In this document: in pieces, positions 20,513 to 45,224 of the stretch
How positions within the stretch are numbered: the stretch's first letter is position 1
Layout: every line of letters begins with the position of its first letter
Assembly (NCBI GenBank): GCA_001662655.1
Contig: KV460217.1
Reading direction: 5' to 3' (one strand)
Length of the DNA: 64,000 nucleotides
Source of the DNA: Pseudogymnoascus verrucosus
Lineage: Eukaryota
The notes under the pieces: generated by a model
What the model saw: only the letters and a program-made list of their open reading frames with translations
The model's database searches: none
What the model was told of the DNA's origin: nothing
Program-made: the position numbers and the translations under genes

Positions 20513-22656
20513 ATGTCGAAATATGAAACCGTCTTAGAGGGGTATGAGCCTTTGAAAGTATTGGTGGCCGGTGGAGGAATTGGCGGCTTATCAGCTGCCA
20601 TCTTCTTGCGTCGCGCAGGACATCAAGTTGAGGTTTGAAAAGCCTTTAAAACTTTCTTCGGGAGAGTCACTAATGTAGAATACAGATCTTTGAATCCTCT
20701 AGATTTGCATCCGAGGCTGGTGCTGCCATCCATATACCAAGCAATGTCAATGGCCTACTGCGAAGGATGGGCATGATCCCAGAAGACCATGGAGCAAACC
20801 AGACAGAATGGGTATCTGAATATCGACCAAATGGAGAAATGGTTTTTCAGAAGGACGTTAGACCATTGTCCTCTGTCTTTCCCTACCCTTGGCAGTTGAT
20901 ACATCGAGTAGATCTACACAACGCACTGAAGAGCATTGCTGTGTCACCGGAAGGGATAGGGCACCCCGTTGTCCTTAATCTGCGAAGCAAGGTCGTGTCT
21001 ATTAACATTGATACACCGTCCTTGACATTAGAGGACGGATTCACGTATACCGGAGATCTGCTCATTGGCGCCGATGGGGTACACTCGAAGCTCAGATCTT
21101 CCATAGCTAAGGATTGCCCATTACCAACTCCATCTGGATCTAGTGCTTTTAGATTTTTGATACCCGCCGATGTCATCCGCGCCGACCCTAAGACTGCTCA
21201 TTTCCTGGAGAGGAAAGGAGAGATGCGTCTCTTATATGGCACCGATCGACGCATTGTAATCTATCCATGCAGAAATAACACACTTATAAACTTCGTGGCC
21301 TTGCACCCCGACGAGGAGACCGAAGCCGATGGAGATAACTGGGACCAGGCAGCATCCAAAGACAGCATGCTATCTTGTTTCTCCTCGTACCCAGAGGATG
21401 TGCGACTGCTCCTTGCGAAGGCATCGGCTGAGACTATTAAATTGTGGAAACTGCTAGATCACGAGGAGCTGGGAAAAGACAATTGGGTGCGCGGGAAAGC
21501 GTGTCTGCTTGGAGATGCAGCCCATGCATTCCTTCCTCACCAGGGTCAGGGTGGTGCGCAAGCTATCGAGGATGGTGCAGCGCTTGGTGCACTTTTCCCT
21601 CTCGGTACGCAAGCATCAGATGTCCCACGTCGACTCCAACTCTACGTTCAGGCTCGTTATGATCGCGCAACACTCGTCCAAGACTTTACACGACAAGCAG
21701 CTTTTAAAACAACACATGGTAAACATGGTGGAAAAGTCATTGACCCAATGCAATTCACAGAGATAAACTTCCGGCACGATGCTTACGATCATGCACGTGG
21801 AATTCTCCTCCGAGAGCTTGCTAGGAACGCCACATACAGGCGAGCGGCCTTCTCCTTTGGACCTTCTCCTGGTCCAAGACAAGATCACATGGGGAGACTA
21901 CGAAATTTGGGAGAGCATTCATATAAGACCTCCTACCTCACATTTAAAACACACAAAAGCTACATTAGCACGCTCTTACCAAGTGAAGAACTGTCAATTG
22001 ACACCAACGGAAGCTGGGCAACGGCCACTCTCGCGGTTACGCGCCTGGCAAACTTGAGCTGGCTTGGTGGCCGGGGCTACTCGTTCTTCGCACTTTATAT
22101 CCACAATGTCACCAGTGACAACAAGACAGCGACTGGCGCCTTGACCGATAATGAGCTCGCAACTGGAGGTGCGAAGAAAGGTGACTTTATCCCTGTCATG
22201 TTCGAGAACAAGGCAGACCCAATTATCACTGGCAGGGAAGAGCTCGGCTTTTCTAAGGTCTTTGCTACCCTGGAAGACACATCCACAGCATCTTCCTATT
22301 CGCTTAGTGCTGGGTGGGAGGGTACTGAATTCTGCACCTTGACCCTAGAGGGTCTGGTTGAAGTGCCATCAGCGGAGCCTACCACTCAGGCTCCCAGTCT
22401 TCACTGGAATGCCATTACGTCCAGCAAAGAAAGTGGCCACAACTACCGCGGAACTGTTACGGTGTACCCTCCTTTTCCTACTTCGGAAGGACAGAGAGAG
22501 TGGAAGGCTGGCGTGGCTAAGGTAAACTTCACAGACCTTGGTGGGCAGCAGCTAGTGCAAGCATTCCCCACTCTATCACACATAATCGAAGGCTTGAGAG
22601 GTATTCAGATCGTCGAGGTACTTAAGAGTGGCGTTTTGGCGTCTAGGGATATGTAG
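20513..22656 (+). CDS. Salicylate-hydroxylase-like FAD monooxygenase fused to a C-terminal acetoacetate-decarboxylase-like domain
   Basis: VAGGGIGG, GADGVHS, LLGDAAH..PHQGQG motifs; C-terminal WLGGRGY..PVMFEN..PIITGREELGFSK; intron 20633-20685. Confidence 0.88.
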
Positions 22657-23094
22657 CCGGATAAATATATTGTTTAGTTTGTCAAATAACTGAGATAAGC
22701 TATATAAAACACGGCATTGTCTTCAAAGGAAAGGCCAACCTTGTACTTTCGCATTTGGATATGTATTTATAATGAGACATATATGCCTCGTCTATAATTG
22801 AAATGGAGTCAAAGTACCGTAGGGGTAAATCGCTTGCGATTAATGTCTTTAATGTTATAGTGGTTGAGTCAGAGATGATAGCGCGAGCCATGAAACATGA
22901 CGCCGCAAATTATCACTCTGGGGTAACTGTCGATCATGGATTCAATGCGGGTTACAAAACCATAGGAATTATCCCAAGCATCTGACATTCAGAAAAGTAA
23001 AAAATAATTCCGTAACTTATGAATTGAATAAACACTCTAACAAGATATAGGTAGTTCTTGTCATGGGAGCAGTAATGCTTCCATATTGACCTAT

Positions 23095-24784
23095 CTAGAC
23101 CAGCCAAAACGTCTTCTTTCTTGCCCATGGTCCCAAGACGTAGAGTGGCACAGCTAATACCAAAATGGCCCATTGGATTGCGGCCATCTCCCAAAACATC
23201 TTGATTAAGCCTTCTCTTGCAAGCCAGATTGGAATACTAAGCGTGACCCCAAAGGCGACGGTATTTTTGCCCGCATTGATAAGTACCAAGGCTTCTGACC
23301 CTGTTGCTGGCCACCCGTCAACTACAACAGACAGAACAACGGACGGAACAAAGACTAGAGCAGAAACCTGCATAGCGTAACCAGCCGCAGCAGCGTATGC
23401 GCTACCTCCGTGAGCTAAGGTGTATGCGAAAAGGAGGAGACCAGGCGGAGCGATGAGGAAAGGCATGAGTAGAGCCGGCATACGATACTCTGGGATATGA
23501 GTCTCTCCGTGAGATCGTTGCCTAAGGAAGCGCGACATGTAATCGGTAAACGGTCCCGCAATAGGGTAGGCTATAACAATGCCGAGGAAAGAAGAGAGTG
23601 CGAAAAGACCAATACCGGATGCTTTGAAGAGGTAGGGAGGGGGAGACAGGAGCTGGGGGGCAACTGTAGCAATTATTACTGCGCTAGGCACTGTCAGAAT
23701 GTATAATACACAGTAGTTTGCTTATGCAGAAGGAACAACAGAAATGTAGTGCTTACCCTCCAAGGAATACACCATAAGAAATGGTTGCGAAGAAAACCTG
23801 TGGTACCAAAATGAAGCGAAATGGGAGCGAAAATTGCCGAGGCCATTCGACCAGTCCGCGTGGTTCGGTACCGCGGTTCTTGAAACTGATGAGATCCCTC
23901 CAATATGACCCAGCGTAAGGCGGATTCAAATTGAGTGCTTGCGACCCAGTAGATTCTGTAGTCACTACAGGCGCATTCACTGCCTCGTTTTTATACTCAA
24001 TCATCTGAACGGCCACCTTATCAGCTTCTTGTGCGGTTTCCCCGTCGTACATAACACGTCGATAGTTCGTCTCGGGAAGGAACAACAAAATCAGGACAAG
24101 ATTCACTCCAATAAGGATAGCGCACAAGATGAAGAACCATCTCCAACCCTTAGCAGTAATGATGAAGCCTGCAATCATAGGCCCAATCTGAGACCCTCCG
24201 GCAAGAAAGATTGAGAATATGGCCATGGCCGTTGCAAAGTAACGCTCCATGTATAGATCTGGCGCACGTCAGCTCCAGATTATTCAATAAATCAGTGAAA
24301 ACTTACCAGCAACTATTGCAGGACCAAGGGAATCGATGCTACCACCAGCGAAGCAAGCTAAGATCCGAGAAGCGACTAGGCTTTGGAATGTTGCAGCCCT
24401 GATGCTCCAGATTGTAGCAGCTAGAAAAACAAAAAGAGCAACTATGATGGTTGCACGCTTTCCTAAGCAAACTGCAGTTGGTGTCCAGAAAACATTACCG
24501 ACACCGAGTGCCAACACGGGATATGAAATCACGTCCACCAACTGGGCGTTGCTAAGGTGAAACTCCATGGCGAGAGCAGCAAACCCGGTCGTAATGCCTG
24601 CCGCGTACATGTTTGCGAGAAACACCATGATGCAAATGTTTGCGAGTGCCAAATGTCTGATGTATGCTGGCCAAAACTGATAACCGTAGTATTAGCATAC
24701 CGGACTTACACATGGAGCATTGGAGGTCTTTCCTACTTTTGGATCGCCAGCTGTGCATTGGGAGAAATCATTCCTTGGGGACAT
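23095..24784 (-). CDS. MFS transporter
   Basis: Hydrophobic exons with GKRATII, ASRILACF, GWRWFF, LPETNY, PEYRMP; introns near 24670-24710, 24257-24307 and 23694-23756. Confidence 0.85.
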
Positions 24785-25324
24785 GATGATAGAAAGTGAC
24801 TCAGTTTGGTCGTATGCATCCAGGTCCTGAGGATATTATGTGTATAAGTGACGGCGATGGGATGTGGCCGCGTATGAGCATTTGCTTCTGTTTCGTCTGT
24901 CCAAGGAGATCGGGGAAGCACATAGAATAAGGCAAAGATAAATCATTGCAGTCCAGATGTACTTCATATAATTGCGTATTGGTATAGCGCGCGGACCCGT
25001 ATTTTGCAATATTGGAAATGATTCTGCGTAGTTAGCGAGACAAAGGGATAGAACCCCACATCACCCGGACCGGGGAAATGGCGGGGGTGGGGAATTTGGC
25101 AAGCAAAAGCTACCCGCCCCCGTATAACAAACACATTCTCAAGTTAAAGTAGCATATTTATCTCTGTGAGGAGCTTCATTGAATACTAGTTTTATTTCGG
25201 ACAAAGCGCGAATAGACTCAAGTGTATGCGCAAATTAGGTAAGGTTGACAATAGTGCAGATTAAGTGAAAGAGATGAATTTGATCAGTTTAATAATTTGC
25301 TCCTTAGATACTCTAAATAGCAGT

Positions 25325-25769
25325 CTACCATTCCCCCCCAATCGCGTAACGAAAGACCTTTGTAAATACTTTTCCTCCAGTACTGCCCCACGTCTGGGCC
25401 ATACCCTATGAGGTCGCATCATTAGTTTGTTATAATCTCTTTCAGTGGTTCCTTGAACATATACAAACTTACTGCATTTAAAGCGACTCCTGTAAACATG
25501 GCAAATAGGAATGCGCGTTCGATCCCGTTACTTCCGTTGGGACGTTCCTCAAAGTTTAACTGGCGATTTAATGGGCGATAGTTGGGGATGCGATTGTGGT
25601 CACGGGGCCAACCAGGAGGATTCTGGACGAGTGTTGTTGTTGAGGACGGATTCAGCGACGCATCAATATTGGCCTCGTTGGTGTCGTTTCCAGAGATGTG
25701 AACCTCGTAATCCTGTAGCGTGCTTTGGAGAGTATAGGTGATAGGGTTTGCTGTCGTCGTGACCGACAT
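25325..25769 (-). CDS. Small hypothetical protein (~125 aa) with C-terminal hydrophobic segment
   Basis: MSVTTTAN...NPPGWPRDHNRIPNYRPLNR...FAMFTGVALNA, GTAAGT intron, exon 2 GMAQTWGSTGG...YAIGGEW*. Confidence 0.7.
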
Positions 25770-26031
25770 CGTGATGAAGGAAGGGAGAAATGAACGAGGA
25801 AAGTAACAGATCCAAAGGAGTCTGTGTCAGTCGTATAGGCAGGATTATTAAAATGTGAGTATGAAAAGTTAATCTTGCAGTTGGCAATTTGGGCACCAAT
25901 GTTTTCGCATGAAAAAAAACCTCACAACAGCTTGTCTGTTTCTATCACCTCTGTTCACTCTCTCTCCATTGCCAGCCGCGGTCATCGGGAAGGGTCATAT
26001 TCTGTTCCGGACTGGGGTGTTCCGAATATAC

Positions 26032-26043
26032 CCCCACATTCCG
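26032..26043 (-). promoter_or_regulatory. Cluster A motif CGGAATGTGGGG (CGG-N3-GTGGGG)
   Basis: Exact 12-mer also at 37639 and 45213; lies in the divergent promoter of the small gene and the ALDH-like gene. Confidence 0.65.
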
Positions 26044-26223
26044 TCGCCTGGAAGCATCACCTGTCAACTGCCGTTCCACGGCAGAAACTGGCGGCAAATG
26101 ACAAACTTCAAAGGATGTAAATCAGATGTGTTCCATGTCATTTTACGATTAATCTTTATTCGTGTTTATTACCATCATAGCGTTTTAAATCCATTGTTGT
26201 TTCGTCCTAAACGTGTTCTCGCA

Positions 26224-27920
26224 ATGTCTTCATTAAGCGGTCTCGAGCAGCTCCGCGCAGCTGCAATTGATGGTAGGACAGAGAACGTCAGGCACAGGCA
26301 GAACGAAATCCAAAAGCTTCATTTATGCCTCCGCGAAAATGCCGCTACCATCTTGTCCTCCATTACCAAGGACTCAGATAGCGGCTCATCGAACACCAGC
26401 CTTGAGTCGGAGGCAGAGTTCTGGCTGACCATGAATGCCGTTGAACAACAATACGACGGGCTCGATTTTGAGGCATCGATCAAACAAGAGTATTTGATTG
26501 TTACCGGGGCCAACAACCAGGGTCGGAGAATTGGGAAGGGTGTGGTTGTTATTCGTCCGACGACACACACGCGGTTCTATTCCATCATAGTTCCGCTTGT
26601 AACTGCCATAGCGGCTGGGAGCTGTACAGCTTTAGAGGTGAGATTCTGCAATCAAATACTATGAAACGACACGCCATTGATACAAACTCTGCGACAGCTT
26701 GCAGATACGATGTTGAATGTTGACTCGGTATTGAAAGATATTCTACCTAAATCGTTAGACCCTGACACATTCTGCATCATAAACGCAACTCTTTACAGCC
26801 AGGAACATGTATTCCTTGTCGACCAAACAGCACAGAGCAATGTATCTTCTGTAGACCGGCTTTGCTCGAACTATTCTGCGCGTGCAATTGCGATAGTCGA
26901 TCGCGATGCCGACATTGAATTTGCAGCAAAAACTATCGTTAAAGCGCGCTTCTCCTTTCAAGGAACTTCACCATACAGCCCCGATTTGATTGTTGTCAAT
27001 GAGTACATCAAGGACGAGTTTACTGAAGCATGCTCTCGTTATGCTGGGAAATTCTTTCCCTCCATGTCGAAATCGATAACAGTACGGAACAACAACTTCT
27101 TAGAAACCAAGAAAGCCCTGAAAGCTGCGGAAGAGAAGGGCGAAGTCACCACATCTGGAACGACACTATTCAAGATTGTGGATATTCATGATAGGTAGGT
27201 CGTGTTAAAACGTTCATGTTTTACGACGGTTAGCATTCTATCGTTCTCCGGTGCTGATACTTTCTAGGAGCTGTCCTATGACCAAGATGAAAATCAGTGG
27301 TTATTGCCTCTCCATAATCTCATCGAGCAGCCTAGTTGACAGCGTCAGCATCAGCAAACTAAGGTGAATTCCGTTCTTTCCCAAAACCCTTATATTCGAT
27401 CTTGCTAATGCGACATAGCCCCGACCTTCTTGCACTCTACACCTTCTCTGACCCAGCAACGGCTAAATTTCTCTCTCAGCATGTCAATGCCCACACAAGT
27501 TTTGCCAACTCTATCCCCTCGCACATACTCGTTGGGCCTGCTGCGCCCATTACCCCCGTCCCCGCACCACCACACCACAAATATAGCACCAACATGTTCT
27601 CGTCACCACGGCCACAATACATCGCCTTGCCGGCACCATCTAGCAACCTCGCACTGATTGACGACATGCTAGCCAGGTTCTACGAGCCTGCGGGACAGAG
27701 CTCGGCTCTGGTGAAATTGAGAGGAAAGGTGGTAGGAAAAGATGGAAAAGCCGCAAAGCTTTTGAAACCAAAGAAGGTACAGCCAGAGGGGAGTCAGTTG
27801 GGATTTTTTGAGCAGGGAATTTTATTAGGTGCAGGATTGGTTTTGACGGTTATCATTTCGACGGCGATTGGGGGGATTTGGGTGGTGAAGCGCTCGATTA
27901 AGGAACAGCGGCCCCTGTAG
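26224..27920 (+). CDS. Aldehyde-dehydrogenase-fold protein (fatty-ALDH-like, C-terminal TM anchor) with degenerate catalytic motifs
   Basis: PLVTAIAAGS, AIVDRDADIEFAAKTIVKARF, SPDLIVVNE, LALYTFS; several introns; TM tail GILLGAGLVLTVII. Confidence 0.8.
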
Positions 27921-28044
27921 CAGTTGACATTAGATATGGGATTGGAAGGTGTATTCGGAGAGAAAAGATATGTACTAGAGAAGTGGATTATGATGCAGGC
28001 ATAAGGAAGTAGTCAGTTTTACATAATCAAAATATTTAGGTGTA

Positions 28045-29886
28045 ACGTAATTCACATACGAGTCGCCCACACAAGCGAGTCGCCCACCAAAACACCAAAA
28101 CGCGTCAACTTAACAAAAGTCAACATGCCACTACCAACACAAGCCCAATCCTCTAATCAAGAGGGTCGAATACTATTAGCTATTAATGCAATTAAACAAG
28201 GCCAGTTTCAAAGTGTTCGAGCAGCTGCAGCATCGTACGATATCCCCCGAACGACCTTACGCGATCGGATTCACGGAATGGCTTCCCGACGTGATTCTAT
28301 TCCTAACTTACAGAAGTTGACTCCGTACGAAGAGTCAGCTCTCGTTCGGTACATCCTTGACCTAGATTCACGTGGATTTCCGCCCCGGCCGCAAGGTGTG
28401 CAAGAAATGGCTGACCTTCTACTCTCCGAACGAGGCGAGAGCTCTGTTGGGAAGAACTAGACTACCAACTTCATAAAACGTCGTACGGAAATTAAAGCAA
28501 AGTTTAGCTGGAAGTACGATTATAAACGAGCAAAATGTGAAGATCCTAAGATAATTCAAGAGTGGTTTTCTCTCGTACGAAACACAGTTGCAAAATATAG
28601 TATTTTAGAGCAGGATATCTACAACTTTGATGAAGCAGGGTTTGCTATGGGAGTTATTGCTACTGCTAAGGTGGTTACAAGCTTAGAGTCAAAGAGTAGT
28701 CGTGCGAAGACTATACAGCTAGGAAATAGAGAGTAGGTGTCAATTATCTAAGGTGTTAATTCGTACGGATGGGCACTCCCGCCGTTCATCATTTTTAAGG
28801 CGCAGAATCACCTCTCTGCTTAGTACAAGGACTTAGGATTACCAGACGATTAGGTGATTACGCTAAGTGAGAATGGGTGGACTTCGAATTCAATTGGGTA
28901 CAAGTGGATTCAACACTTCAATCAGCATACAAATGCTCGTACGATCGGAACGTATCGCCTTCTTATTCTTAACAGACATGAGAGCCACCTCTCTGCTCAA
29001 TTTCAACACTACTGTACAGAACGGAAGATAATTACCCTCTATATGCTACCACACTCGTCGCACATTCTTCAGCCACTTGACGTGAGCTGCTTTACTCCAC
29101 TAAAGCTTTCGTACGGACGTCAGATTAAAACCTTCGTACGGAACAAGCTAAACCATATCACGAAGCTTGAGTTTCTCTCTGCATTTAAGGAAGCATTTAA
29201 AGCTACATTTACAGAGCAGAACATTAAGAGTGGATTCCGAGCTATAGGGCTAGTTCCGTACGAGCCATAGAGTGTCCTCTCTCACTTAAATCTACACTTA
29301 AGAACTCCGACTCCTCCTATAGTTGAGAGTGACAATTGGACTTCAAAGACTCCTTAAACTATAAGGGAGCTTGACTTTCAAACAGAGCACGTTAGGAACC
29401 GCATTATACAGCATCAGAATAGCTCTCCTAGCTCAATTACTAACGCACTAAGCCGGCTTGCTAAAGGAGCTCAGGTTATGATGCATTCTGCTACTCTACT
29501 TAAGGCAGAAGTTAAGGCTCTACAAGCAGCAAATGAACAGAAAAAGAGGAGGGAAAGGAAGCGTAAGAGGCGTATAATGCAAGGGGGAACCCTCTCCGTA
29601 CGAGATGCAGAGGATATCCTTCAAAGTGCTGAGGTTGATGCTCAAGTCCGTACGGAGGTGGCAAGTAGGACTACTCAGCAGGTGGGTTCTACAGGCCGAC
29701 AGAAGCGCTGCGGCTTATGTGGTATTATGGGCCATAACTCCCGTACGTGCAAGAGGCACGAGGATTCAATTACGATCGAATAAGGGTCATTATATAGGGT
29801 GGTGGTGTAGTAGTAGGCAGTAATAGTCAATTTTGGTGTTTTGGTGGGCGACTCGCTTGTGTGGGCGACTCGTATGTGAATTACGT
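28045..29886 (+). mobile_element. Complete pogo/Fot1(Pot2)-type Tc1-mariner DNA transposon, RIP-inactivated
   Basis: Perfect 56-bp TIRs (28045-28100 / 29831-29886) starting ACGTAATTCAC; TA target-site duplication on both sides; transposase inside. Confidence 0.96.
28125..29783 (+). pseudogene. pogo-family transposase (HTH-psq, CENP-B HTH, DDE, C-terminal CCHC knuckle) with in-frame stops
   Basis: One frame with stops at 28458, 28734, 28749, 28821, 28851, 29268 and 29355; YNFDEAGF, LILNRHESH (from LILDGHESH), QPLDVS, CGLCGIMGHNSRTC. Confidence 0.93.
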
Positions 29887-30017
29887 TATTTATTCTGATT
29901 TTAATTAACTTACTATTAAACGCCATATATTAACAGTCGTGTCTCTAATCAGCTATAATAAGGGTAAGGTAACAACGTAGCTTATAAACTAATTATTTTA
30001 AACGTCGAATACTTCAT

Positions 30018-31037
30018 TCAACTCTTTGCACCGCCCGTGGGCCACTTTCCTAATGTAAACTGACTATTGCACATATTCCGCAACTCCCAGTCCTCAGCCC
30101 CCACAGTCGCGGACAAGCCAATATCTTCAAAAGATCCACACAAGCCAGCAACAAACATAGCCGCCATGAAATGATCATCGGTTCCATGTGCATCGCGGTA
30201 CTTTGGGACCTTCATCAGCATAGTCATAGCGCGACGAAGCTCAGGGCCCGATTTCTTGGTGATGGCGTCTTCGAATTCCTGGCGGAAATCCAGCATTTCG
30301 CGGTCGGGCGGTGTTTCCAAGGCAAAGTTATCTAGATGGGAGTCATTAGAGTTTCCAAAATATAAAAATATTGTACTTCAGGGGATGAGCGTGGCATACC
30401 GCGGAATTGCAACATTTGGAACCAGTTATTCCGGTACAAGTTGTGAACGGCACCTCCGGTGCCAATAAAAAGAACATTCTCTTTCCTCAGCGGACGCAGT
30501 GCTGAGCCCACCTTCACGTGGTAGTGAGGATCGTAGCGGGCGTTCATACTGATAATTGTCGTGGGCGGAGAACCACCAGGGAACATGCGGATAAGGATGA
30601 GATAGGTATCATGAATCCAGTCAAACTTGTCGTTGAGTTTGGCCTTCAGCCCACTAGTTTTCAGTAGATCGACACATCGACTAGCCATAGGGAGATCAGG
30701 GACTAGCTCGTAGTCCATGTATTTTGCAGGGTCAACATAGGCAACGGGGGATTTGGCCGGCGTGGGTTTAGCGGCGACTTCTATTTCGTCGCCGGAGGTA
30801 GCCCAGTGTGCACCCTAAAGGAGATACAGATGTGAGCAATAAAATTTCAATTACGCAGCAAAAAAGGAATTGAGAGATAGACGACAAGCTTACCATCATG
30901 ACAACATGCTCGACTTTGTTTGCAAGGGCTTCGTCGCCGCATTGCTTCCAGTAGGTGGCCGACGCCGACTCCTCGCCCAACATCATAGTGGAACCATGGG
31001 AGAAGAAGTGTACAGGAGTAAGCTGAGACTTAGCCAT
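30018..31037 (-). CDS. LigB-type extradiol aromatic ring-opening dioxygenase (4,5-DOPA dioxygenase family)
   Basis: FFSHGS, GAHW, WIHDTY, GTGGAVHNL, AHGTDDHF motifs; introns ~30818-30893 and ~30333-30399. Confidence 0.88.
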
Positions 31038-32349
31038 GATGAGTATGCTCTGTTCCGACAGAAGACTGGGCGGAGATGCTGATATGGGCGAGAAATAGGA
31101 TGTGAGAGCGGCAATAGACACAAGCCGGAAAAGGCGAGGTAACGGATAGTATATTTTTGGTAAGAGGGACGTTAGATACGGCACTGAACTGTTCGTGACT
31201 GTGGAAGCCAATGGGGCGATTGTGAGAAGGTGATTATCATGTTGTTGATGCTAGAATCTGACCACTGGTGATATAGCTGGAACCTCGGAGTTTGAAGATA
31301 CGCGGCTAACCGAATTAAAACTTCCGTTGTAAAGACCCAATGGGTCTCGAAATGGCAACGAACCATGTTTGGTTTCTCTCCGGGTCAACTGCTGTGCATA
31401 GTTGAGACATATCGAGTGAAGTCCTGTGATACTTACCGGGTCCGGTGGGGGGATGTTGATGGGGAGTACCGGGGACTGCGGTCGCGGCGGTTGGTTGACA
31501 CCATGTGCACGTACCCTTACCAGCCGCAAGGATTAGGCGTGACGTGAGGGTGAGGGGCCGGTGGAGCAAGCGAGAATATGAACGACACGAGTCTGAGCTC
31601 GGGTCACTGAGAGTAAAAGTGCCCCTGTTTCGTATAAAAAATATATAATCACCTGTACTGGTGTTGTAAAATGTAGAAAATATTGCCCCCTTTACGCGGA
31701 GATGCACCTCTCTCACTACTAAACTAGCAGACGTAAACTAGAGGGGCTGCATTTACGGAAGCGGAGCGGATTCAAACATGAAAAGTGCCATTATATACCC
31801 CTCCCACCAAATCCTCTGCTGTGTGTATATAATATCATTAATTTGGACTTTTGGGAGGATTCCTCTATCCTTGCGATAATATATTGCCTCTGCATCCTAA
31901 GCTCTCTGAATAAGTATGCGATCGTTGTCTAAGGGTTTTCAAAGCAAGGGCGAGGTTGACCGGAAAAGGCAGACAGCTGAAGAGAACGTCGAAGAGGCAA
32001 AGGAAAAGGAAAGCAAAGAAAAGATACCTATAACCTCATAATATTTATTTACTACTTTAAATGTTTTTCATAATTGTTCGTGTAACTATGAAGTCCTCTT
32101 GAGGAATGATGATGCGTAGATCCATACATATAGGTGCCGAAGTTCACACTTGTGCCTGGACCCATCTTACCCCGCCATTAGCGTTATGCGCTAGAGTGGG
32201 TCATACATTGGACGAAGTCCACATAAATTCTTATTGTCCCACGACAGCTCTATTTAGTTTTGAGCCTCCTAGCTTGACCGTCGGGACCACCTTCGGCCGG
32301 CCACTGCCTTCCTCATTCACTCCACGGCCCAAGTAAGTATAAGCAGAGG

Positions 32350-35300: not shown

Positions 35301-35539
35301 TCCTGGCAGCCGTGGTATTCAACTGGCACTCGAAACGGCCAGAGGCTCAAGACGGCGCACTCATTCAATTAGACGATCCAAACGCTGTTCTGCAGATGGC
35401 TCGGGACTTGTATCGAAATAATTTCCCGTTCAAGGGCGAGCCCTTGCCGCCGCTGGTTGAGAACATTGGGAACTTGATGAGAGACCTTGGCAGTTTGCCT
35501 CAAAATCGATTTTCACGATGTGTAAGCCCAATGGAATGA
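32350..35539 (+). CDS. Transcription factor with two C2H2 fingers, a Zn2Cys6 cluster and a fungal TF domain
   Basis: CGICQRTYERADRLSRH, CQRCQKSFNRADLLTRH, CLACAAAKARCENNKPCRRCQSKDITC; multiple introns. Confidence 0.92.
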
Positions 35540-35982: not shown

Positions 35983-37409
35983 CTACGGAATAGCTGGATC
36001 TACACTAGTAAATTTTGCTCTGATGGTAGTCACTGTCATTGCATAGCTTTGCGGCACAGGCATAGGAGCTACCAAGTCTGTGGTCGACTCCATGTCCGTA
36101 GCGAATTCGTGTGTCTTGTACATCCCACACCTTTCCGTACGGCGCAGATTGTCATCCGGATGTTGATTGTAGTAGGGGTGAGCTCGTGTGGTATGAATGT
36201 CGCTGTGCCCAGTAGCCGCAGAAGGGGTGCGACAGCTCAAAAAACGGTATAATGGTTTGAGAGGTGGTGCGCAGGCACAAATGAGCCCGACAGAACTTTC
36301 AACAGCTGACCAAGTGGTAATATCGCTTCCATCCCCTATAATTATCACATGCTCTTAGTAACATATACGGAAATCATAGTTATGTGCTCGAAACCAGTGA
36401 TTCGGAACAGAATAGCATGATGCATGAATAGAACGCCAATTAAAACCAAAATAACTCACAAGCTTGATCACTGCTGGTGTTGAACTGAGTGACCCGTGCG
36501 AGACGTACAATTGCAGCTACGATAACAAGAGAGGCGAGGGACACAATTGCCAGGAGCGCAGCCTTTTGGCCACGGTCAATTTTTAGTGACACTGCGAAAA
36601 TGTAAGTCATGGTCATCTCGTTCAGTGTTCAGCCATAACATACTGATGTGAGGAATAATGAAGAGCAAGAGCACGACATCGCACAAGATATTACAGATTG
36701 CAGTTACCCAAAGCGTGATAAGATAATTGCTACACTGTCCCAAACTCTTGACCTGCCAGGCTTTGCTAATGGGGCGACACTGAAAGATGCTTGTAAACAT
36801 CACTGAAGTTGTGTAGGAACCAACAAAAGCCATGAAACCATATACTGCATATCGGCCTCTCTTGTGGCTTCTGAAGATCCGTAAAAACAACGCACAGATA
36901 GCAATCTTGGTAATACCTAGCACAAGCAGGTAGATGAGACGAGTGAAAAAGCCTAGTAACAGTGTTTTCTGATATTGCTCCTCGGTTATGGTATCTTGAT
37001 GGCGCCCCGCGCCGTACCTCGTGAGAAGACAGTTCAGGAATATGAGAATAGTCTCAAAGATCTACCGAAGTATTTAGCATCCATTGGCATATACGGGCGT
37101 GAATTAGCTACCCAAGCGACTGCAATCCATGAATCATCTGTGCCCCAATTGCGGGTCAGAAATATTCGAGTGAAGAAACGAGCAACGACAGTCACGGACG
37201 CAATTGTGAAAGGAACCAAACTTCCAACCAGTATTTCTTGTATACGGGACTCGCTCAAATACTTTTGGTCCTAGACATTCGTTAGAGCTCGTTCATGATC
37301 GACTTTTAGACATCCTTAACGACGATAGTGCCCAAAGTGAGATTGCTCCACAAAGTTGGTAAATCATTTAGGAAAAGAAAACAAGCTGACGTACGTTTGA
37401 TGTTGGCAT
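35983..37409 (-). CDS. PTH11-like (fungal rhodopsin-domain) integral membrane protein
   Basis: MPTSN|intron|DQKYLSESR..ARFFTR..WGTDDSWI..YGAGRH..KIAICALFLRIF..FQCRP..WSAVESSVGLICACAP. Confidence 0.82.
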
Positions 37410-37638: not shown

Positions 37639-37650
37639 CGGAATGTGGGG
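37639..37650 (+). promoter_or_regulatory. Cluster A motif CGGAATGTGGGG
   Basis: Exact copy 230 bp upstream of the PTH11-like ATG. Confidence 0.6.
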
Positions 37651-38148: not shown

Positions 38149-39477
38149 TCAGAGTTGCGCTGGTAGAACTTTTCCAGTACATTCTCCAAAACCCACGCCA
38201 TTTGATGCCAATGCGGATATCCGTATTTCATCACCATCCTCAATGTAAACCCTTGACTTTCCATCACCAATTTCAAAGCTGTCTTGTCCACCCTTGGTAA
38301 GTTCTAGTAGGCATCCGTGGCTCTCATCTGTCGAGCCCGATATTGTACCCGTACCTAAGATGTCGCCGGTGTTCAGGCAGCATCCATTGCTGCTCTGATG
38401 CACGACTAAATCTCGGAAAGTCCAATACATAGCATTGAGATTGCTCTTACAGATAGTGGTCGATGTGCCACTAGTTATAATATCAGCCTGCAGGGCTATG
38501 TCGTAGCTGTTAATGGGATTGGGATCCACGAGATATGATGCAACCTCCAACTCGCGTGGCTGGCCTATGATTGCCGAGGCTTGTAGTGCATCCAAGGTGA
38601 TTATCCAGGGTGACATCGATGTGGCGAAGCTCTTCCCGTTGAGTGGACCTAATGGGGTCATTTCCAAACCTTGGATATCTCGCGCTGAATCGTAGTTAGG
38701 TAAAACATCCATTGAGGTCAAGCATGGCCGACTTACCACTCCAGTCATTCATGAGGACATATCCAAATATGTGGTCATCGGCGTCCTTGCTTGTAACAGT
38801 TTCACCCAACTTGGTGGGCTTACCGACGATACAGGCTAACTCCAACTCGTAATCGAGCTGCTCTGTTGGTCGATATTTTATGCCGCCTTGACCATCGCGG
38901 AATTGTCCTTTAGGCCTGACAAATGATGTCCCCGAAACAATTATCGAAGAAGTTCGCCCAGAATAACCTATTGGGAAATGCAGAAACGCGGGTGGGAGAT
39001 AGCGTTTCTTCAGTATTGCTTCGCCAGCATTAAGTACATGGTCCTTTGAACACGAGAAATCCGTAAAGTCGCGGCTCGAGACGGGGAGATGCATGGTAAC
39101 ATCCTTAAGTTCGGCTGTAGATCCAGCTGGGAAAGATGTAAGAGGTTCTTTGAATAGGGTCTGGAGTGCTGCTCTAGCTTGTTGGTGGATAGATCTAGGA
39201 AGTGCGGCAAAGTCGTTGAGAACAACCTTCATAAATTAGACATGTCTTAAAAAATGTCACTTAATGGAAAGAATTAGAAAAACCGCACCTGAGAGAAGGC
39301 ATGAAGTGCTTCGTTTGGCAAAGAAGACAGGAGATCATGTTTTGCGAGTTCATCGAGGTATATCACCGTATTTTCCAGTCGGGTAACTGCAGACGGGCGG
39401 GGATGGTCTTCACTGCTTCCAATTCCGAATGGAATATTACAGACTGAAAAGTGGGAGGCGAACATAGCGGTGGACAT
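38149..39477 (-). CDS. Fumarylacetoacetase (FAH family)
   Basis: HFSVCNIPFGI, DFTDFS, LDYELE, MNDWSARDIQ, PLGPLNGKSF, GDILGTGTISG. Confidence 0.92.
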
Positions 39478-39803
39478 GCGTGAGCTCTGTGAGTCTAGTA
39501 AAAGGGTTTCTGAAAAGTGTAGCTATAAGAAGCAATGAAGTATTTTTTTCGAGGTGGTAAATTGATTTTGACTACTTTTTACTTTTCGAACCGTTTCTCT
39601 GTATGTATGTGCCCGTACACGCTCCCCCTCACCCGCCTTGCCAGCAGTTTGTCCACAAGTGACACAACACTGCATACCATTGAAAACGTACAATAAGTAT
39701 TAACCTGATACGATTGGCAAATCAAATGCCGAGGATTGAATAAGACGCAGCGTCGCAATTCGGGTCGGTAATGGATGGCCAGTTCCTCAGCCATCGACCC
39801 GGC

Positions 39804-39825
39804 CCCCACTATCCGGCCGGTGGGG
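39804..39825. promoter_or_regulatory. Two overlapping inverted CGG-N3-GTGGGG sites in the FAH/cupin divergent promoter
   Basis: CCCCAC-TAT-CCG (39804-39815) and CGG-CCG-GTGGGG (39814-39825). Confidence 0.6.
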
Positions 39826-39986
39826 GTTGGTCCGTTACAACATGTACTAGATATCCAGCCACTCTTTGAAAGTGACCGATATTCGCTCTGATCTCATTTC
39901 AAATCTCATAAATGATTTAATGGCCATTATCCTCAATCAGCTTACCAATTTGACTTGACCACTTCTTCAATTAATTCCTTCACAAA

Positions 39987-40544
39987 ATGGCGAGCTATGT
40001 CAAACCCAGCCCCCTCCCTCCCATCAACCGATACATTACAACCAATTCGGAAACAGGCACAGCACTCCTGGACGCTACCATCTCCAACACAGCCTCATGG
40101 ACCAGCGCCGGTGTAGCCAATTTCTTTCTTGGCTACTGCACGTCTGCCAACCCCGTCTCATTTAAAGCCGACGCCGACATTAAAGCCTATAGCAAGTATC
40201 TTGCTGAGCCTCCTGGCCTTGTCGTCCCCAATGGCACCGTCCTTCGCGTCGTCGACATGATGCCAGGTGAGCTATCGCCTATGCACCGAACCACCAGCTT
40301 GGACTACGGAGTCGTGCTAGAGGGCGAGGTCGAGTTGATTCTAGACGGAGGCGAGAAGAGAGTCATGAAGCGAGGGGATATTTGTGTGCAGAGAGGTACG
40401 AACCACGCCTGGAGGAATTGCAGCAATACGGAGTGGTCAAGGATGTTGTATGTTTTGACGGAGGCGTCACCGGTAGAATTAGAGGATGGAAACAAGTTGG
40501 AGGAAGATTTGGGGGGCATGGTAGGGGTGAGAAAGAGTGCCTAG
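39987..40544 (+). CDS. Cupin-2 domain protein
   Basis: SPMHRTTSLDYGVVLEGE, GDICVQRGTNHAWRN; intronless 185 aa. Confidence 0.9.
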   Translation: MASYVKPSPLPPINRYITTNSETGTALLDATISNTASWTSAGVANFFLGYCTSANPVSFKADADIKAYSKYLAEPPGLVVPNGTVLRVVDMMPGELSPMHRTTSLDYGVVLEGEVELILDGGEKRVMKRGDICVQRGTNHAWRNCSNTEWSRMLYVLTEASPVELEDGNKLEEDLGGMVGVRKSA

Positions 40545-40858
40545 TGACCTGGGCAGGGATATGGAGCGCAATTGTCATAGGTTTGGCTAGTTTATAGGAT
40601 GAAACAGATGAACTAACGAAGAACTGAGTCGCCCTCGCAAAATTATAAATAACTGATTTCGTGCCGCTACTATTTAAGATAAACAATGGAGACGCAAGGT
40701 ATGGATAATTTATCAATGTACTTTTACAATTTTGCCAGAAATAATTTCATTACTGTACCAAATCATTCATTTTTTATCTTACATTCAACTGTAACAATAA
40801 CAGTACTAAGATTTATGATGCTAAACTATATATAATCATGCCTGCCTTAATATGTTCT

Positions 40859-42921
40859 CTATCTTTTAGGTATAATTGGAAGTGTGACGTAGTTGTCTAT
40901 GCCTTCTCCAAAATGGAGATTGTTCGTCCCGGAAAAAATATTCTTGGATCTTTTGAAGAAATTAGCATGGAAGCGCAGAATTGCTTACGGCAAAAAGAGA
41001 AGAGCCATAGAACGAAAGCCACGACATACCTGTCTTTCACATTTGTGTGCGTAAAAATGCCACTCCCCTGAGTGTCTCCAGAGGAAATTTCAAATACTAT
41101 TCTACCCCCCTTTTCAGCGATCACGTTTGTCGGCCAGACCTCGACATCGACCGCGTAGATAGCATTAGGTTTGACCTCCTGGACATCGATTGAGCGGTAC
41201 TCGCGGTACGGCTGGTACTCGCTGTGGCGTGGGTGATCCGTGGCAACCTTCCGCAGTGAGACACGGAGCCAGCCTTTGGCGAGAGGGATAGGATCACCAG
41301 CAGTGCCAGTGTAGTGGACCTCTTTGCCGGACGGGTCGATGTAGCGTATGGTCACAAAAAGGTCGATGTCCTTCTGTGAGGCGGTAGCAGTGGAGTCCGG
41401 AGTTAAGGAAACATTTAAATGGGCAGTTATATGCCCTGTAATCTCAGTGTCGGCCTCAAATGGAGCACTGATGAATTGGACTAGCTGTGGACTTGAAAGA
41501 TTTCCAAGGGCTTCGTATGAGATGGTTGAAGAACCAACAAATGGGACAGTAGTAGAAAGGGTGTTCTCGGGTGTCAGATAGAACTTGGTATACTGTGTTC
41601 CCTCCAATGGCCATTCTGGCTCTTCTCGCCTTTCGTACACTTTTTCTGACTCTGCGTTATTGAATCCCACATTACCTTTGCGTAAGATGATGCTTACGGG
41701 TGCGACTTTGCCTGGAGTAGACCATCCAACTCTATCGTCACCTTTAAGAAAGGCATCAAGGAAGGATCTTTGAACCTCAACTTCCTCCTTGCAGTAGAAC
41801 GGCAGATCGTGGCGACCGGTAATAAAGCGAAGATACTTTAGCTTGGACCCTGCCCACTTGTACCCGTTGATGTTACCTATATGATCTGTTAGACATTACT
41901 AGTAGGTTATGGGTGATACAGTACTAACCTCTCAAATGTAACAATATCCCTCCCCAGTTAGCCACGGACAAAACAGGAACCTCGATATCCCCAAGGTTAA
42001 ATTCCTTGGATGCATAGTAAGTGTCGTCTAGAAATTTATTTTTCTCGTTGTCGATGTTCTGATCATTTCGATTCTGCATCAATACATCCTCAGGCAAATC
42101 ACCTTCAGCTGTGTCCTCGCCCCATTTGGATGCGGCGCGGCCAGGCTTTCCGTACTGATTCGTAACAACTTGTCGATTCCACCAAAATTTGATGAAGTCG
42201 TTTGATAATATACCGCCATGTCGACACCGATCACGATAGTAGTCTGTCATGCCTTCCCATGGCACTATTGCAGCGAGGCCCTTGGGCCTGCGTGCCGCTA
42301 CTCGCCACTGACTGCCTATTCATATCCATAAGTTGGTTTTCACTGTGAAACATAATGAGATACATACCTGCATAGTAACTTATTCCTAGCAAGCCCACCT
42401 TACCTGATGACCAAGGCTGCTCCGATGCCCATTCGACAACATCGAAAAAACACTCGCTCGTGCTTCTTGACATTGTGTCCAGCAAGCCTGGACTTTGTCC
42501 TAGTCCCCGCTCATCACATCGAACTACGACATAGCCCTTTGAAGTCCAGAACACCGGGTCGGGTGTCTCCCACGCGCTGTACTTGCTCTTATGCTCAGGA
42601 TTCACTTCCGAGAATGACTTGGCAAAGAAACTAGACGCAATTGTTAGTATGCAATCAAATTACGACGCGATAAAAGAATCCCAAGCTGTACAAATCAAAG
42701 GGTTCTTACTTGTCATAATGGATGTCTTTCCCGTACGGCCCATAGGTCACCAAAACTGGAAACTTCTCGTCTGCTGATTGGGATAACGGCCGATACACAT
42801 TGCAGCGTACGGGTAGAGGAGAATCTTTTAGAGGCACGGAAACATTCTTTTCGAATACTAGGTTGTTCTCTCTGTCCTCTGTGATTGTCAACAGATCCCT
42901 GATATTATTTGTGATTGACAT
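40859..42921 (-). CDS. CocE/NonD (peptidase S15-like) alpha/beta hydrolase
   Basis: VTYGPYGKD, WETPDP, DERGLGQSPG, GISYYAG nucleophile, ITGRHDLPFY, KGWLRVSLRK, EVWPT; several introns. Confidence 0.9.
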
Positions 42922-43116
42922 CTCCGCAAAATTGAAGACCGTAGTCTGGTAACGGGTTTAGTTGGTAGCAGATAGGGTATGACTTCAGGATATGTTGATA
43001 TCTAAAGTAAGTATTTAAGAGTATATAATATGTGGGGGTTTAAAGGAGCACGCAATTATAAATTGAGAAATGCGCTTCTTTGGTAAGAGTGGGAATAGGC
43101 TACCTACCCCCACCAC

Positions 43117-43128
43117 CGGGAAGTGGGG
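43117..43128 (+). promoter_or_regulatory. Cluster A motif CGG-GAA-GTGGGG upstream of the CocE/NonD hydrolase (near-copy cccacattccg at 43422)
   Basis: Matches CGG-N3-GTGGGG. Confidence 0.55.
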
Positions 43129-43474
43129 GTGGGTTATCATGTATCGGCAAGTTCTGACCAAGATTTTAGTCGGAACTAACTATTTGTTTCCCTCAAGGTT
43201 CGCACGGCATTCACGACCACTAAAAGTATGAGTACACTGCGCAGTAATTTGTTTCAAAGTACTTGAACGGAAGTACTACTTCAATTATCATGTTCGTTGC
43301 TGCCACTACTACCCCTGTGCCTGCTTTCAGCCTCCGACTCCGATTGGGTCTTGTCCCCCGGAGGAACTGCGTTGCCAGGTTTCCGATGTGCTTTTGCTCA
43401 TTGTTTTTTAATCCGTAATCACCCACATTCCGTATAGCCTGAACCTATTCCGGAGACAGGTAGACCTCCAAATC

Positions 43475-45058
43475 CTAGTTTTTGGTGTAGCCTTTCCGCT
43501 CCACCACCGTCCCACAAAAGTTCTCCGGCTTCACAAACCACCTACTCACCGATCTCCACTCTTTATTTCTCACCTCATCATCGAGAACAAATTCAAACCT
43601 CCTCACTACCTCCGGAATAAGTTTGCTCACCTCTAGCAAGCTCAAATTCTTTCCAATACATGTCCGACTACCCATCCCAAACGCAAAGAAATAACGCTCA
43701 ACATTTGCCCCATTGTTATGCTCCTTAATCTCTAACCAGCGCTCTGGCCGCCAGGTGTCTGCATCAGCCCCGTACACGGAAGTGTTACGATGTGCCACCC
43801 AGGCGTTGATGCCGACCGTGCAGCCAGCGGGGAATTTCTGCCCGGCAAGCGTGGCACCACAGGGAGGTACCACACGTGAGAGAGGTAATCCGGTGGCTGA
43901 GTGTAGGCGGAGGCCTTCTTTGATAACAGCTTGGAGGAAGGGAAGTTGGGTAGCTTCTTTGAAAGTGATTGGGTCAGAGATAGCACCTGCGGCTATGCCA
44001 GCGTCGATTTCGTTTTGGAGGCGCTTGTACGTAGCAGGGTGCTTAAGGAGATGATAGAGGACCGAGGAGAGCGTGATGGCGGTCGTGTCGCTACCTGCCC
44101 CAATGTTGCTCTGGCAGATGGTAAATAAGTCACTTGGTGTCATTTTCTCTGGATCTTCAGCACGAAGAGCCAGAAACTTAGACACAAAATCGGGTGGGCC
44201 ATCACGGTCTTGACTTTTGGGGTCTTTGAGCAACGCCTCTCGTGACGCGATCTGAGATTTGGTATAACCTGCGACATATCCGTGGCCCCCAGTAGATGGA
44301 AGAAGAGGGAAGAGGATATTGTGGAGCTTTGGGAATATGCCAACGTATGTGCTGTATGAACCTCGCGAGTCAATGGCTCCGAAGACTCCTTCCTTATCAA
44401 CGCCCATGTCGAGGAATCCAAAGCGCTTTCCAAATGTTATCTCGCCAATAACATCGAACGCGTAGCATTGGAACCAAAGCCCAAAGTTCACTTTCCGGCC
44501 GGTCTGAGCTATCTCATGGAAGCGCAAAACGAACAGACAGCTACAGTTATCAACAAACGGCTCGTAGCCCACAAGAGAGCTCATTGAGTATGCGGAAGCA
44601 AACTTGCGGCGTTGTACGCCATGGCGATGAGGGTTAAGGTCGGCAAAGAGGGACGCCTTGTCGGGATCTGGCGGCATCCATGCCCAGTACCATGGAGCCT
44701 GGTTAGTTCGTTAGATTAGTAAACTAAAGGCTGGAGATGGCCATCGAACCTTGACAAACGCATTTCCATGCCCGTAGATTATTTTCGCGGCTTCAACGTC
44801 GTCGATGGAATACTCATTCGGCGCAATCCGCACAACTGGCCCATACTTCTTATGGAGGTCGACATTCGTCCTCTCAAAATCGCCTTGGTATATTTTATAG
44901 AGATACCACAGACGTGTGAATCGTGCAAGAGGCGGTCCTGGAACGCTGCGTAGCGGATCAATGAGCCACGAGACCAAGCTAAAAACAACACAGAGAGCAG
45001 CTCCAAGAGGCAAAATACTGCCTAAAGACAGTGATAGTAATTCCTTCAACATTGACAT
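43475..45058 (-). CDS. Cytochrome P450 (pisatin-demethylase-like)
   Basis: N-terminal TM, PGP, YGPVVRIAPNE, AGSDTT, EGLR, PERW, FGMGSRTCIG; intron ~44700-44749. Confidence 0.94.
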
Positions 45059-45212
45059 TGCCACAAATGTTCTATTGCTCGACTTGAAGAATTACATAGG
45101 GAGTATGGCGTCTTATTATACGCTGTAATAGTGAAGCAAGCGTTGCATAGTTAACGGAAGGCAACTGATGTTCACCTGTGTGGGAATTGCGGGGTAATCC
45201 CCCCTCACTTAT

Positions 45213-45224
45213 CCCCACATTCCG
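45213..45224 (-). promoter_or_regulatory. Cluster A motif CGGAATGTGGGG upstream of the P450
   Basis: ccccacattccg, exact copy. Confidence 0.62.

Follow-up and report, generated by a model that had tools for sequence, protein, structure and literature searches.

The window analysed here is a 64-kb stretch of Pseudogymnoascus verrucosus DNA (64,000 nucleotides of contig KV460217.1, assembly GCA_001662655.1), which carries at positions 20513-45224 a cluster of eleven genes, g1 to g11 (Table 1). Among them are a LigB extradiol dioxygenase (g5) and a single transcription factor (g6). Nine of the genes form a core that shares an upstream motif: a FAD monooxygenase fused to an acetoacetate-decarboxylase-type (ADC) domain, a major facilitator superfamily (MFS) transporter, an orphan, a Cys-less protein of the aldehyde dehydrogenase (ALDH) fold, LigB, the regulator, a fumarylacetoacetase-family hydrolase (FAH), a cupin and a CocE-type hydrolase. 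By comparison with other fungi, the genes are a genuine unit, built around one regulator and conserved in evolution. Its recurrence in other fungi and the motif shared by its promoters show that the grouping did not arise by chance. With a probability of about 0.6, we read the cluster as a widely conserved ascomycete regulon that would serve the catabolism or detoxification of a hydroxylated aromatic (phenolic) acid via extradiol cleavage of the 4,5-DOPA (3,4-dihydroxyphenylalanine) dioxygenase (DODA) type.

Gene content of the locus

Gene models were built with a splice-scoring script and then adjusted by annotated homologues and read joints. Nine spliced models (g1, g3, g4, g5, g6, g8, g9, g10 and g11) are open from ATG to stop, and consensus introns are present in g7. 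Identities to database proteins are 685/696 for g1 (P0001), 285/290 for g5 (P0121) and 345/404 for g8 (P0243). A hypothetical protein of Pseudogymnoascus sp. 24MN13 matches the g1 product at 98% identity, and the g5 product is 99% identical to a 24MN13 protein neighbouring the g1 homologue on the same 36.5-kb contig.

Table 1. Features of the cluster region, and how often each gene lies beside LigB in environmental fungal loci (aa, amino acids)
Feature	Position	Strand	Model	Loci with the gene beside LigB
g1 FAD monooxygenase (group A)-ADC fusion	20513-22656	+	696 aa; 2 exons (20513-20632, 20686-22656)	8/31, three partial
g2 MFS transporter	23095-24950	-	at least 4 exons; 5' end approximate	6/31; one above 50% identity (L025, 53%), others 24-28%
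g3 conserved orphan	25325-25769	-	125 aa; 2 exons (25473-25769, 25325-25405)	9/31
g4 ALDH-fold protein	26224-27920	+	502 aa; 4 exons; hydrophobic C-terminal tail	11/31
pogo/Tc5-type DNA transposon, not a cluster gene	28043-29888	+	between g4 and g5	
g5 DODA/YgiD-type LigB (class III) extradiol dioxygenase	30018-31037	-	290 aa; 3 exons	
g6 transcription factor, 2x C2H2 then Zn2Cys6	32350-35539	+	1003 aa; 4 exons	15/31
g7 PTH11-like / fungal-rhodopsin-domain membrane protein	35983-37367	-	ends approximate	
g8 fumarylacetoacetase-family C-C hydrolase (FAH)	38149-39477	-	404 aa; 3 exons	3/31
g9 cupin	39987-40544	+	185 aa; single exon	8/31
g10 CocE/NonD-family alpha/beta hydrolase	40859-42921	-	602 aa; 5 exons	9/31
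g11 cytochrome P450	43475-45058	-	510 aa; 2 exons	
Motif sites: 20129, 20242/20246, 25054, 25082, 26032, 31437, 37639, 39804, 39814, 43108, 43117, 45213	20129-45224			

The Pfam search covered 31 chosen pieces in 18-48 kb and, outside this interval, 60 chosen of the 113 open reading frames (ORFs) of at least 90 amino acids. It recovered all 11 domain assignments of the original prediction, which had been made from the sequence alone. No polyketide synthase, nonribosomal peptide synthetase or terpene synthase domain was found among the scanned ORFs of the 64-kb window, in agreement with the claim that a backbone gene is lacking. The gene row had been described as contiguous; its genes are confirmed, but a transposon between the ALDH-like gene and LigB had gone unmentioned. 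This element is 1.85 kb long, with 58-nt inverted ends that are 100% complementary and a TA at either border, and the domains HTH_psq, HTH_Tnp_Tc5 and DDE_1 lie on pieces of one frame broken by stops or introns. In a sequencing run, X3, the sequence left of 29953 departs from the window.

Two further runs from different studies, X1 and X2, which are merely guessed to be RNA, yielded contigs at least 99% identical to the region; no run recorded as RNA was found to cover it. Joints were found in g6 at the intron 34176-34250 (X2), in g8 at 38685-38736 (X1), and in g10 at 42631-42709 (X1 and X2) and 40950-41029 (X2), and they fall exactly at GT..AG borders. Loose ends of X1 contigs fit the g5 intron 30332-30399 and the g11 intron 44699-44749, and X1 contigs also cover g9. 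No contigs of g7 were found in X1 or X2, which is not a sign of silence. The two samples show spliced copies of g6, g8 and g10 by joints and fitting ends for g5 and g11, and not induction or co-regulation.

Recurrence around LigB and the shared promoter motif

In nine named species the monooxygenase-ADC fusion, LigB and/or FAH lie 1-12 gene numbers apart, as read from locus tags or a shared contig. These are Pseudogymnoascus sp. 24MN13 (VE04_02908 / 02904), Pseudogymnoascus sp. VKM F-3775 (V491_00526 / 00520), Botryotinia globosa (EAF00_008047 / 008043), Cadophora gregata (ONS96_007191 / 007192), Oculimacula yallundae (VTL71DRAFT_2252 / 2251), Malbranchea cinnamomea (5961 / 5955), Sporothrix eucalyptigena (010023 / 010011), Aspergillus nanangensis (FE257_002073 / 002071) and Coniothyrium glycines (006309 / 006317). 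They represent four ascomycete classes, the Leotiomycetes, Eurotiomycetes, Sordariomycetes and Dothideomycetes. Homologues lie on equal-sized contigs in Sclerotinia borealis, Diplocarpon mali, Rutstroemia, Glarea, Halenospora, Amniculicola and others.

A metagenome scan with the LigB protein gave 31 environmental fungal loci, of which 16 are under 4 kb and 4 are near-duplicates. The loci were searched by tblastn with the window models, using high-scoring segment pairs at E<=1e-8 and a summed score of at least 80 bits. At least one further cluster gene is carried by 24 of the 31, and none of the 7 LigB-only loci reaches 4 kb. Around LigB, the same seven to nine families are found again in shuffled order, at identities of 60-85%; locus L025 has 9 of the 11 genes in an order unlike that of the window. 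The 8 flank genes of the window and its TcuA-like neighbour are in none of the 31 loci, and the flanks of the long loci are unrelated genes (GH6, SNARE, HET, histidinol dehydrogenase, peroxidase). Co-location is conserved beyond the surrounding synteny, in 24/31 loci against 0/31 for the flanks. Linkage in related genomes had been set by the original prediction as its own test, and the genes are linked there, both in the nine species and in the 24 loci. The proposed eleven-gene unit stands in part. Nine genes recur as partners, while the P450 g11 and the PTH11-like g7 have no homologue (E<=1e-8) in the 31 LigB loci, L025 included.

A k-mer screen of eight upstream regions led to the pattern CCCCAC-N0-5-CCG. 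It has 13 matches in the window against 1.78 expected, a count reached by 0 of 100 shuffles. All 13 lie upstream of cluster genes and none in the remaining 39 kb, although the latter includes catabolic-looking genes (phenol hydroxylase, GH32, GH5 and a second cluster). In an independent check on 27 non-redundant loci, 19 of 23 sites were within 600 nt upstream of cluster genes; the density of sites was 0.67/kb upstream, 0.03/kb in gene bodies (3 sites) and 0.01/kb elsewhere (1 site). Inverted CCCCAC pairs around a central CCGG occur at 39804-39825 (FAH/cupin) and 43108-43128 (CocE promoter), where 0.02 would be expected in the window; the strictly palindromic form is in none of the related loci. 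The motif also occurs upstream of g7 (37639-37650) and g11 (45213-45224), and both copies are the identical 12-base version of the g3/g4 promoter. This shared version argues that the P450 and the PTH11-like gene were recruited to the regulon in Pseudogymnoascus.

The regulator g6 has two zf-C2H2 domains directly followed by Zn_clus (32278-34035, plus strand; Pfam), and its distant homologue in locus L006 has both domain types. According to the recognition code of zinc fingers, helix positions -1, 3 and 6 specify the bases. In the g6 translation these positions are Arg, Arg and Arg in finger 1 and Arg, Leu and Arg in finger 2, which presumably select GGG and GTG. Together these give GTGGGG, to which the motif core is complementary, and Zn2Cys6 domains usually bind CGG/CCG as their half-site. 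We propose that g6 may read a composite site, with the C2H2 fingers on GTGGGG and the Zn2Cys6 domain on the adjacent CGG.

Outside the cluster, the gene directly to the right (45515-47119, minus strand) is a single-exon gene that scores 487 against 369 bits for the TcuA tricarballylate dehydrogenase equivalog of NCBIfam. It is divergently paired with a gene of the class II aldolase/adducin family (47611-48668, plus strand). Both lack the motif, and neither recurs next to LigB in other loci. A hAT-like remnant is at 50196-50900. The interval 51642-63477 holds a Fungal_trans regulator, a zinc alcohol dehydrogenase, an Amidohydro_2 protein (ACMSD-type decarboxylase family), a DUF1932 protein, a mitochondrial carrier and an MFS transporter, possibly a second catabolic group. 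On the left side, 2281-6649 contains a GH32 glycosidase gene and a phenol-hydroxylase-type FAD monooxygenase (FAD_binding_3 and Phe_hydrox_dim), unrelated to the motif.

The encoded proteins and a proposed route

LigB was recognised by Pfam in g5 at 30332-30814 (minus strand), where exon 2 alone scores 30.6 bits against the PF02900 cut-off of 26.3; P0121, full-length and 99% identical, carries PF02900 as well. The solved relatives are the 4,5-DOPA dioxygenases 9j2l, 8in2 and 29ky and YgiD of E. coli (2pw6), matched from one exon at E values of 1e-11 to 2e-9. The score against the YgiD equivalog of NCBIfam (NF007914, 4,5-DOPA-extradiol-dioxygenase) is 66.3 bits, below the cut-off of 233. Five His-bearing blocks are conserved across the related loci, save for one broken copy. 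Metal is bound in NiDODA by His10, His48 and His230, as given in the consulted part of PMC13263728. In g5, His-bearing blocks lie close to both termini and at the junction of exons 1 and 2, and apart from the broken copy they are kept in every locus alignment obtained for each block. Histidines of solved DODAs align with the second and fourth blocks, and the other two are assigned by position only. The g5 product is predicted to be an intact, single-subunit LigB enzyme of the DODA/YgiD type, and not of the LigAB type. The LigB extradiol dioxygenase originally proposed is thereby upheld and its type specified. The broken copy, in L030 at 208-1126, has stop codons, lost blocks and 42-47% identity, and is probably a pseudogene.

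FAD_binding_3 (E 1.3e-13) and ADC (PF06314, 43.8 bits against a cut-off of 29.8) lie in one reading frame of g1 (20674-22653, plus strand; Pfam). The best solved relatives of the flavin half are 8r2t, 8x38 and 8gsm (E about 4e-41), a set formed by GsMNX1, PcMNX1 and 4-hydroxybenzoate 1-hydroxylase, which are fungal oxidative decarboxylases. In PcMNX1, the active-site residues tested by mutation are Gln79, Tyr134, His247 (the general base) and Tyr251, as reported in the part of PMC13559804 available to us. Alignment of g1 with 8x38 replaces Gln79 by His, Tyr134 by Trp and His247 by Arg and keeps Tyr251 alone, one of the four, so that g1 lacks the MNX1-type active site; the chain numbering is assumed to be shifted by 3 against that of the paper, which fits all four residues. 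The Arg at the His247 position is nearly invariant in the family alignment and stands beside a second Arg. The flavin half appears to form a separate subfamily of group A flavoprotein hydroxylases, for which decarboxylative hydroxylation is a lead only, because the catalytic His247 is Arg. The lack of this His is a correction to the original reading of the monooxygenase. Two homologues of g1 were named OpS4 by their sources. OpS4 converts orsellinate to benzenetriol by decarboxylative hydroxylation in the synthesis of oosporein (PMC13450407, in part).

The C-terminal 260 residues of g1 adopt an acetoacetate-decarboxylase fold in the predicted structure (pLDDT confidence score 83). In a Foldseek search the best match is 3cmb (template-modelling score, TM, 0.73; E 1e-16), followed by MppR, Sbi00515, Swit_4259 and CaADC; TM scores of 0.50-0.73 and sequence identities of 10-17% relate the domain to solved members of the superfamily. 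All 32 aligned fusion proteins share one Lys, at what we take to be the position of the Schiff-base lysine of acetoacetate decarboxylases, and we infer that it may be equivalent to this catalytic residue. By profile, fold and lysine, the C-terminal half belongs to the ADC superfamily. The 120 matches listed for the fusion mostly have both Pfam families and range from Leotiomycetes to Aspergillus, with a yeast in addition. Botrytis and Sclerotinia have homologues of the fusion at 62-67% identity, and Zymoseptoria has one at 43%.

Pfam finds FAA_hydrolase_N and FAA_hydrolase in g8 (38149-39522, minus strand), a long-form fumarylacetoacetase of which half is matched by mouse and human FAH at E about 1e-43. 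Its orthologue P0243 reaches 376.3 bits against the TIGR01266 cut-off of 375.3, a borderline attainment of the equivalog. In g10, Peptidase_S15 and PepX_C extend over four exons (40897-42957, minus strand); 3ib3 is the sole clear solved relative, and the TIGR00976 matches, from single exons, are below the cut-off. The block of the serine nucleophile is kept in seven of eight locus alignments, the eighth (L010) being broken there, so that both domains and the serine block of the CocE/NonD family are present. Enzymes of this family are hydrolases of the esterase/peptidase type. The C-C hydrolysis formerly ascribed to the cluster would find its enzyme in FAH, the sole clear C-C hydrolase; that CocE would do so is an assumption. 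In Colletotrichum and Seiridium, CocE/NonD and FAH are found in one protein (models P0254, P0267-P0269, P0272 and P0275, 943-1125 amino acids), which may be a true fusion or merged neighbours; the genes are adjacent either way.

The cupin g9 (Cupin_2, 39975-40544, plus strand) is related to the uncharacterised solved cupins 3es1 (E 2e-34) and 8x0u, and its His/Glu-bearing blocks are kept in 7/7 locus alignments. MFS_1 lies over two exons of g2 (23753-24691, minus strand), Fung_rhodopsin of the PTH11 type in g7 (35983-37061, minus strand; E 7.7e-35) and p450 in g11 (43475-44710, minus strand; E 2.4e-60).

The two other core proteins are unusual. The Aldedh match of g4 is weak (26665-27198, plus strand; E 3.5e-7, 69 residues), and a search of the ESM Atlas returned "ALDH family" only. 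In alignments to solved ALDHs (6k0z, PutA), Pro/Ser takes the place of the catalytic Cys in g4, and Asn that of the general-base Glu. The same substitutions are common to ten of ten relatives from the loci, which keep other blocks of their own. The ALDH-like label holds for the fold; aldehyde oxidation is not to be assumed, because both catalytic residues are gone. The small gene g3 has no Pfam or NCBIfam match. It is a real gene, since conservation next to LigB extends over both of its exons and takes in the C-terminal block, and 311 representative proteins match it at E<=1e-3. An AlphaFold2 model of a g3 relative (pLDDT 60, predicted TM score 0.28) has one long helix with the remainder disordered, and the ESM Atlas search for g3 gave nothing usable (scores below 0.9, phage-tube clusters).

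From these assignments a route can be proposed, of which all steps beyond the domains are inferred. The MFS transporter would import the compound, and the flavin half of g1 would convert it by hydroxylation into a vicinal diol or benzenetriol, perhaps releasing CO2. LigB would then open the ring adjacent to the diol. An ester or a lactone/pyrone form of the ring-cleavage product may be opened by the CocE-type hydrolase, and the cupin may isomerise or further oxidise an intermediate. The ADC-type domain, with its invariant Lys as Schiff base, could decarboxylate a beta-keto acid or split off pyruvate in a retro-aldol reaction. FAH would cut the leftover beta-diketo acid to yield central metabolites, and g6 would switch the genes through its composite site. 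Candidate substrates are orsellinate- or gallate-type acids and catechols of the caffeate/DOPA type; the catabolic purpose and the plant origin of the aromatic, as originally proposed, are putative. The attainment of the fumarylacetoacetase equivalog score by FAH is in support of catabolic logic, as is the likeness of the gene set to the fungal gallate cluster described below, and the catalytic blocks of LigB, the CocE serine, the cupin and the ADC lysine are conserved in the loci.

A more far-reaching proposal is tentative, and we hold it to be possible rather than probable. The core may be a so far unrecognised central aromatic-catabolic route of filamentous ascomycetes, a counterpart of bacterial meta-cleavage, in which a bifunctional monooxygenase-ADC enzyme precedes catabolic extradiol cleavage by LigB, new functions belong to the membrane-anchored Cys-less ALDH fold and the 125-residue orphan, both conserved, and a dual-type factor reads a two-part site.

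Rival readings and known systems

Several observations weigh against the reading as a catabolic regulon. The motif was derived from the very regions in which it was counted, so the window count is partly circular, and 14 of the 31 loci have no motif match. LigB and the monooxygenase-ADC fusion have their best matches on unequal-sized contigs in six species (Bogoriella, Penicillium cataractarum, P. atrosanguineum, Aspergillus tetrazonus, A. karnatakaensis and Bisporella). FAH was recovered beside LigB in just 3 of the 31 loci, though flanks are short there. In loci L023/L024 (10001-20958), a LigB 82% identical to g5 lies in another neighbourhood, with a BBE/FAD_binding_4 oxidase, an MFS transporter, a regulator at 32% identity, an SDR and a flavin monooxygenase, which suggests a second LigB-anchored cluster type. 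As to the chemistry, oxidative decarboxylation by g1 is not secured, with Arg in place of the general base of MNX1. The g4 product probably cannot act as a classical aldehyde dehydrogenase, and neither g3 nor g4 has a place in the proposed route. NiDODA of Neolecta and AsLigB/AsDODA of A. sydowii convert L-DOPA in vitro, in a pigment context (PMC13263728; 10.1101/2024.12.13.628389; each in part). Growth on gallate persists in an A. niger strain from which all 17 genes for ring-cleavage dioxygenases, among them the LigB types, are missing (PMC10512348, in part), and therefore no phenotype is known for the LigB family.

The DOPA conversions lend themselves to the main rival, a biosynthetic pathway to a pigment or pyrone, in which LigB as a DOPA/caffeate-type dioxygenase would give betalamic acid, muscaflavin or a pyrone, the catechol would come from the P450 or flavin monooxygenase, and the other enzymes would tailor the product. 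The closest solved relatives of g5 are indeed 4,5-DOPA dioxygenases, the authors of the in vitro work point to uncharacterised ascomycete homologues, and a P450 is within the cluster of the window. E. coli YgiD, however, also cleaves DOPA in vitro, while its natural role is unknown. The conserved C-C hydrolase of the fumarylacetoacetase family is a hallmark of degradation, the P450 is missing from all 31 related loci, and no tyrosinase, amino-acid-handling or conjugating enzyme was found by Pfam among the scanned ORFs of the window. Nor is such a neighbourhood described in the part of 10.1101/2024.12.13.628389 consulted, in which "gene cluster" occurs 0 times. We consider a DOPA-cleaving biosynthetic pathway improbable. 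That the genes are chance neighbours of unrelated function is contradicted already by the locus search and the motif check. Oxidoreductase and hydrolase genes are abundant in fungal genomes, yet here the families recur around LigB while every flanking gene differs, their locus tags are close in nine species and their promoters share a motif.

The extent of the regulon and the identity of its factor are less settled. The functional unit may be the nine-gene core only, with g7 and g11 mere neighbours by local Pseudogymnoascus history. This is the least unlikely of the alternatives: the two genes are absent even from L025, which has the other nine, and the blocks are arranged differently in the window and in L025, so that rearrangements have occurred around g7. 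On the other hand, both carry the g3/g4-type 12-base motif, which is found nowhere outside the cluster in the 64 kb, P450 contigs occur in X1 and X2 alongside core-gene transcripts, and FAH and the PTH11-like gene are adjacent in P. verrucosus, whose gene model merges them. The motif itself could consist of sites for the carbon-catabolite repressor CreA, common in catabolic promoters, and not of a site for the cluster regulator. The CreA consensus is SYGGRG, which the motif core GTGGGG, as we take it, also fits; this counts against the regulon reading. The Zn2Cys6 part of the pattern is short, and the promoters themselves were the source of the pattern. CreA sites nevertheless seem a rather unlikely explanation, as the cluster holds 13 copies of the extended pattern with CCG, against none in the other 39 kb with its catabolic-looking genes. 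The pattern is also kept upstream of orthologues in distant fungi, and the g6 architecture, a C2H2 pair followed by Zn2Cys6, suits a two-part site. A catabolic regulon under g6 remains our preferred reading.

The breakdown of plant and lignin aromatics by fungi has been described almost wholly as intradiol or homogentisate-type ring opening. The statement that characterised fungal routes are mostly intradiol agrees with the literature, in which fungal extradiol cleavage is barely characterised (PMC12420386 and PMC10512348, in part). According to the available part of a 2025 survey, LigB/DOPA-type dioxygenases are conserved in fungi and have no known catabolic role (PMC12420386), and one LigB gene was induced 232-fold in an A. 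niger tanX mutant (PMC10512348, in part). Our literature search found no functional description of a cluster of such make-up, and transcriptome papers on S. sclerotiorum and F. verticillioides dealt with other matters. The locus and its relatives provide the fungal LigB family with fixed partner genes, a candidate regulator with a candidate site, and targets for knockouts and assays, so that the question of what fungal LigB enzymes degrade becomes directly testable. Aromatic catabolic clusters of fungi as such are known; new here are a defined nine-gene core and a candidate pair of cis-element and regulator. Three unexplored protein types are flagged as well, namely the monooxygenase-ADC fusion, the Cys-less ALDH fold and the orphan g3.

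Among known systems, the gallate/1,2,3,5-tetrahydroxybenzene cluster (Martins et al. 2023, PMC10832562, in part) likewise combines a group A flavin monooxygenase, an FAH-family protein, a short protein without domains, an MFS transporter and a transcription factor; the short proteins are alike by description only. The ring is opened there by DUF3500 but here by LigB, and no DUF3500 was found among the ORFs of the window scanned by Pfam. In the available text, no ADC fusion on the monooxygenase and no CocE, cupin or ALDH-fold partner are described. The present cluster is very probably an instance of the class anchored by an aromatic ring(-opening) dioxygenase (ARD), as judged by the class description. 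ARD clusters, candidate phenylpropanoid-degrading clusters catalogued computationally in 2017-18 and reused later, are unexpectedly conserved and enriched in plant-associated Pezizomycotina (Gluck-Thaler and Slot, 10.1101/184242). In the part of that work consulted, no function, regulator site or biochemistry is given for the class.

The bacterial LigAB/GalA meta-cleavage routes, as summarised in the consulted part of PMC10512348, are similar in that a LigB-superfamily dioxygenase is followed by hydrolytic and aldolase-type steps that lead to products at the level of pyruvate. In contrast, the dioxygenase here is of the single-subunit DODA/YgiD type, no homologues of LigA, LigC, LigI, LigJ or LigK occur in the cluster, and FAH, an ADC-superfamily domain, a cupin and CocE make up the downstream part. 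With the DODAs (Beta/Amanita DODA, YgiD, NiDODA and AsLigB), g5 shares the fold family, the closest solved structures and the His-bearing blocks, but it falls short of the YgiD equivalog (66 against 233 bits) and its context is degradative. The MNX1 enzymes (PcMNX1, 8X38; GsMNX1, 8R2T; PMC13559804, in part) and OpS4 are without the C-terminal ADC domain of g1. That domain has the fold and the Lys of the ADC superfamily (CaADC, MppR, Sbi00515 and Swit_4259), but in g1 it is fused to a flavoprotein.

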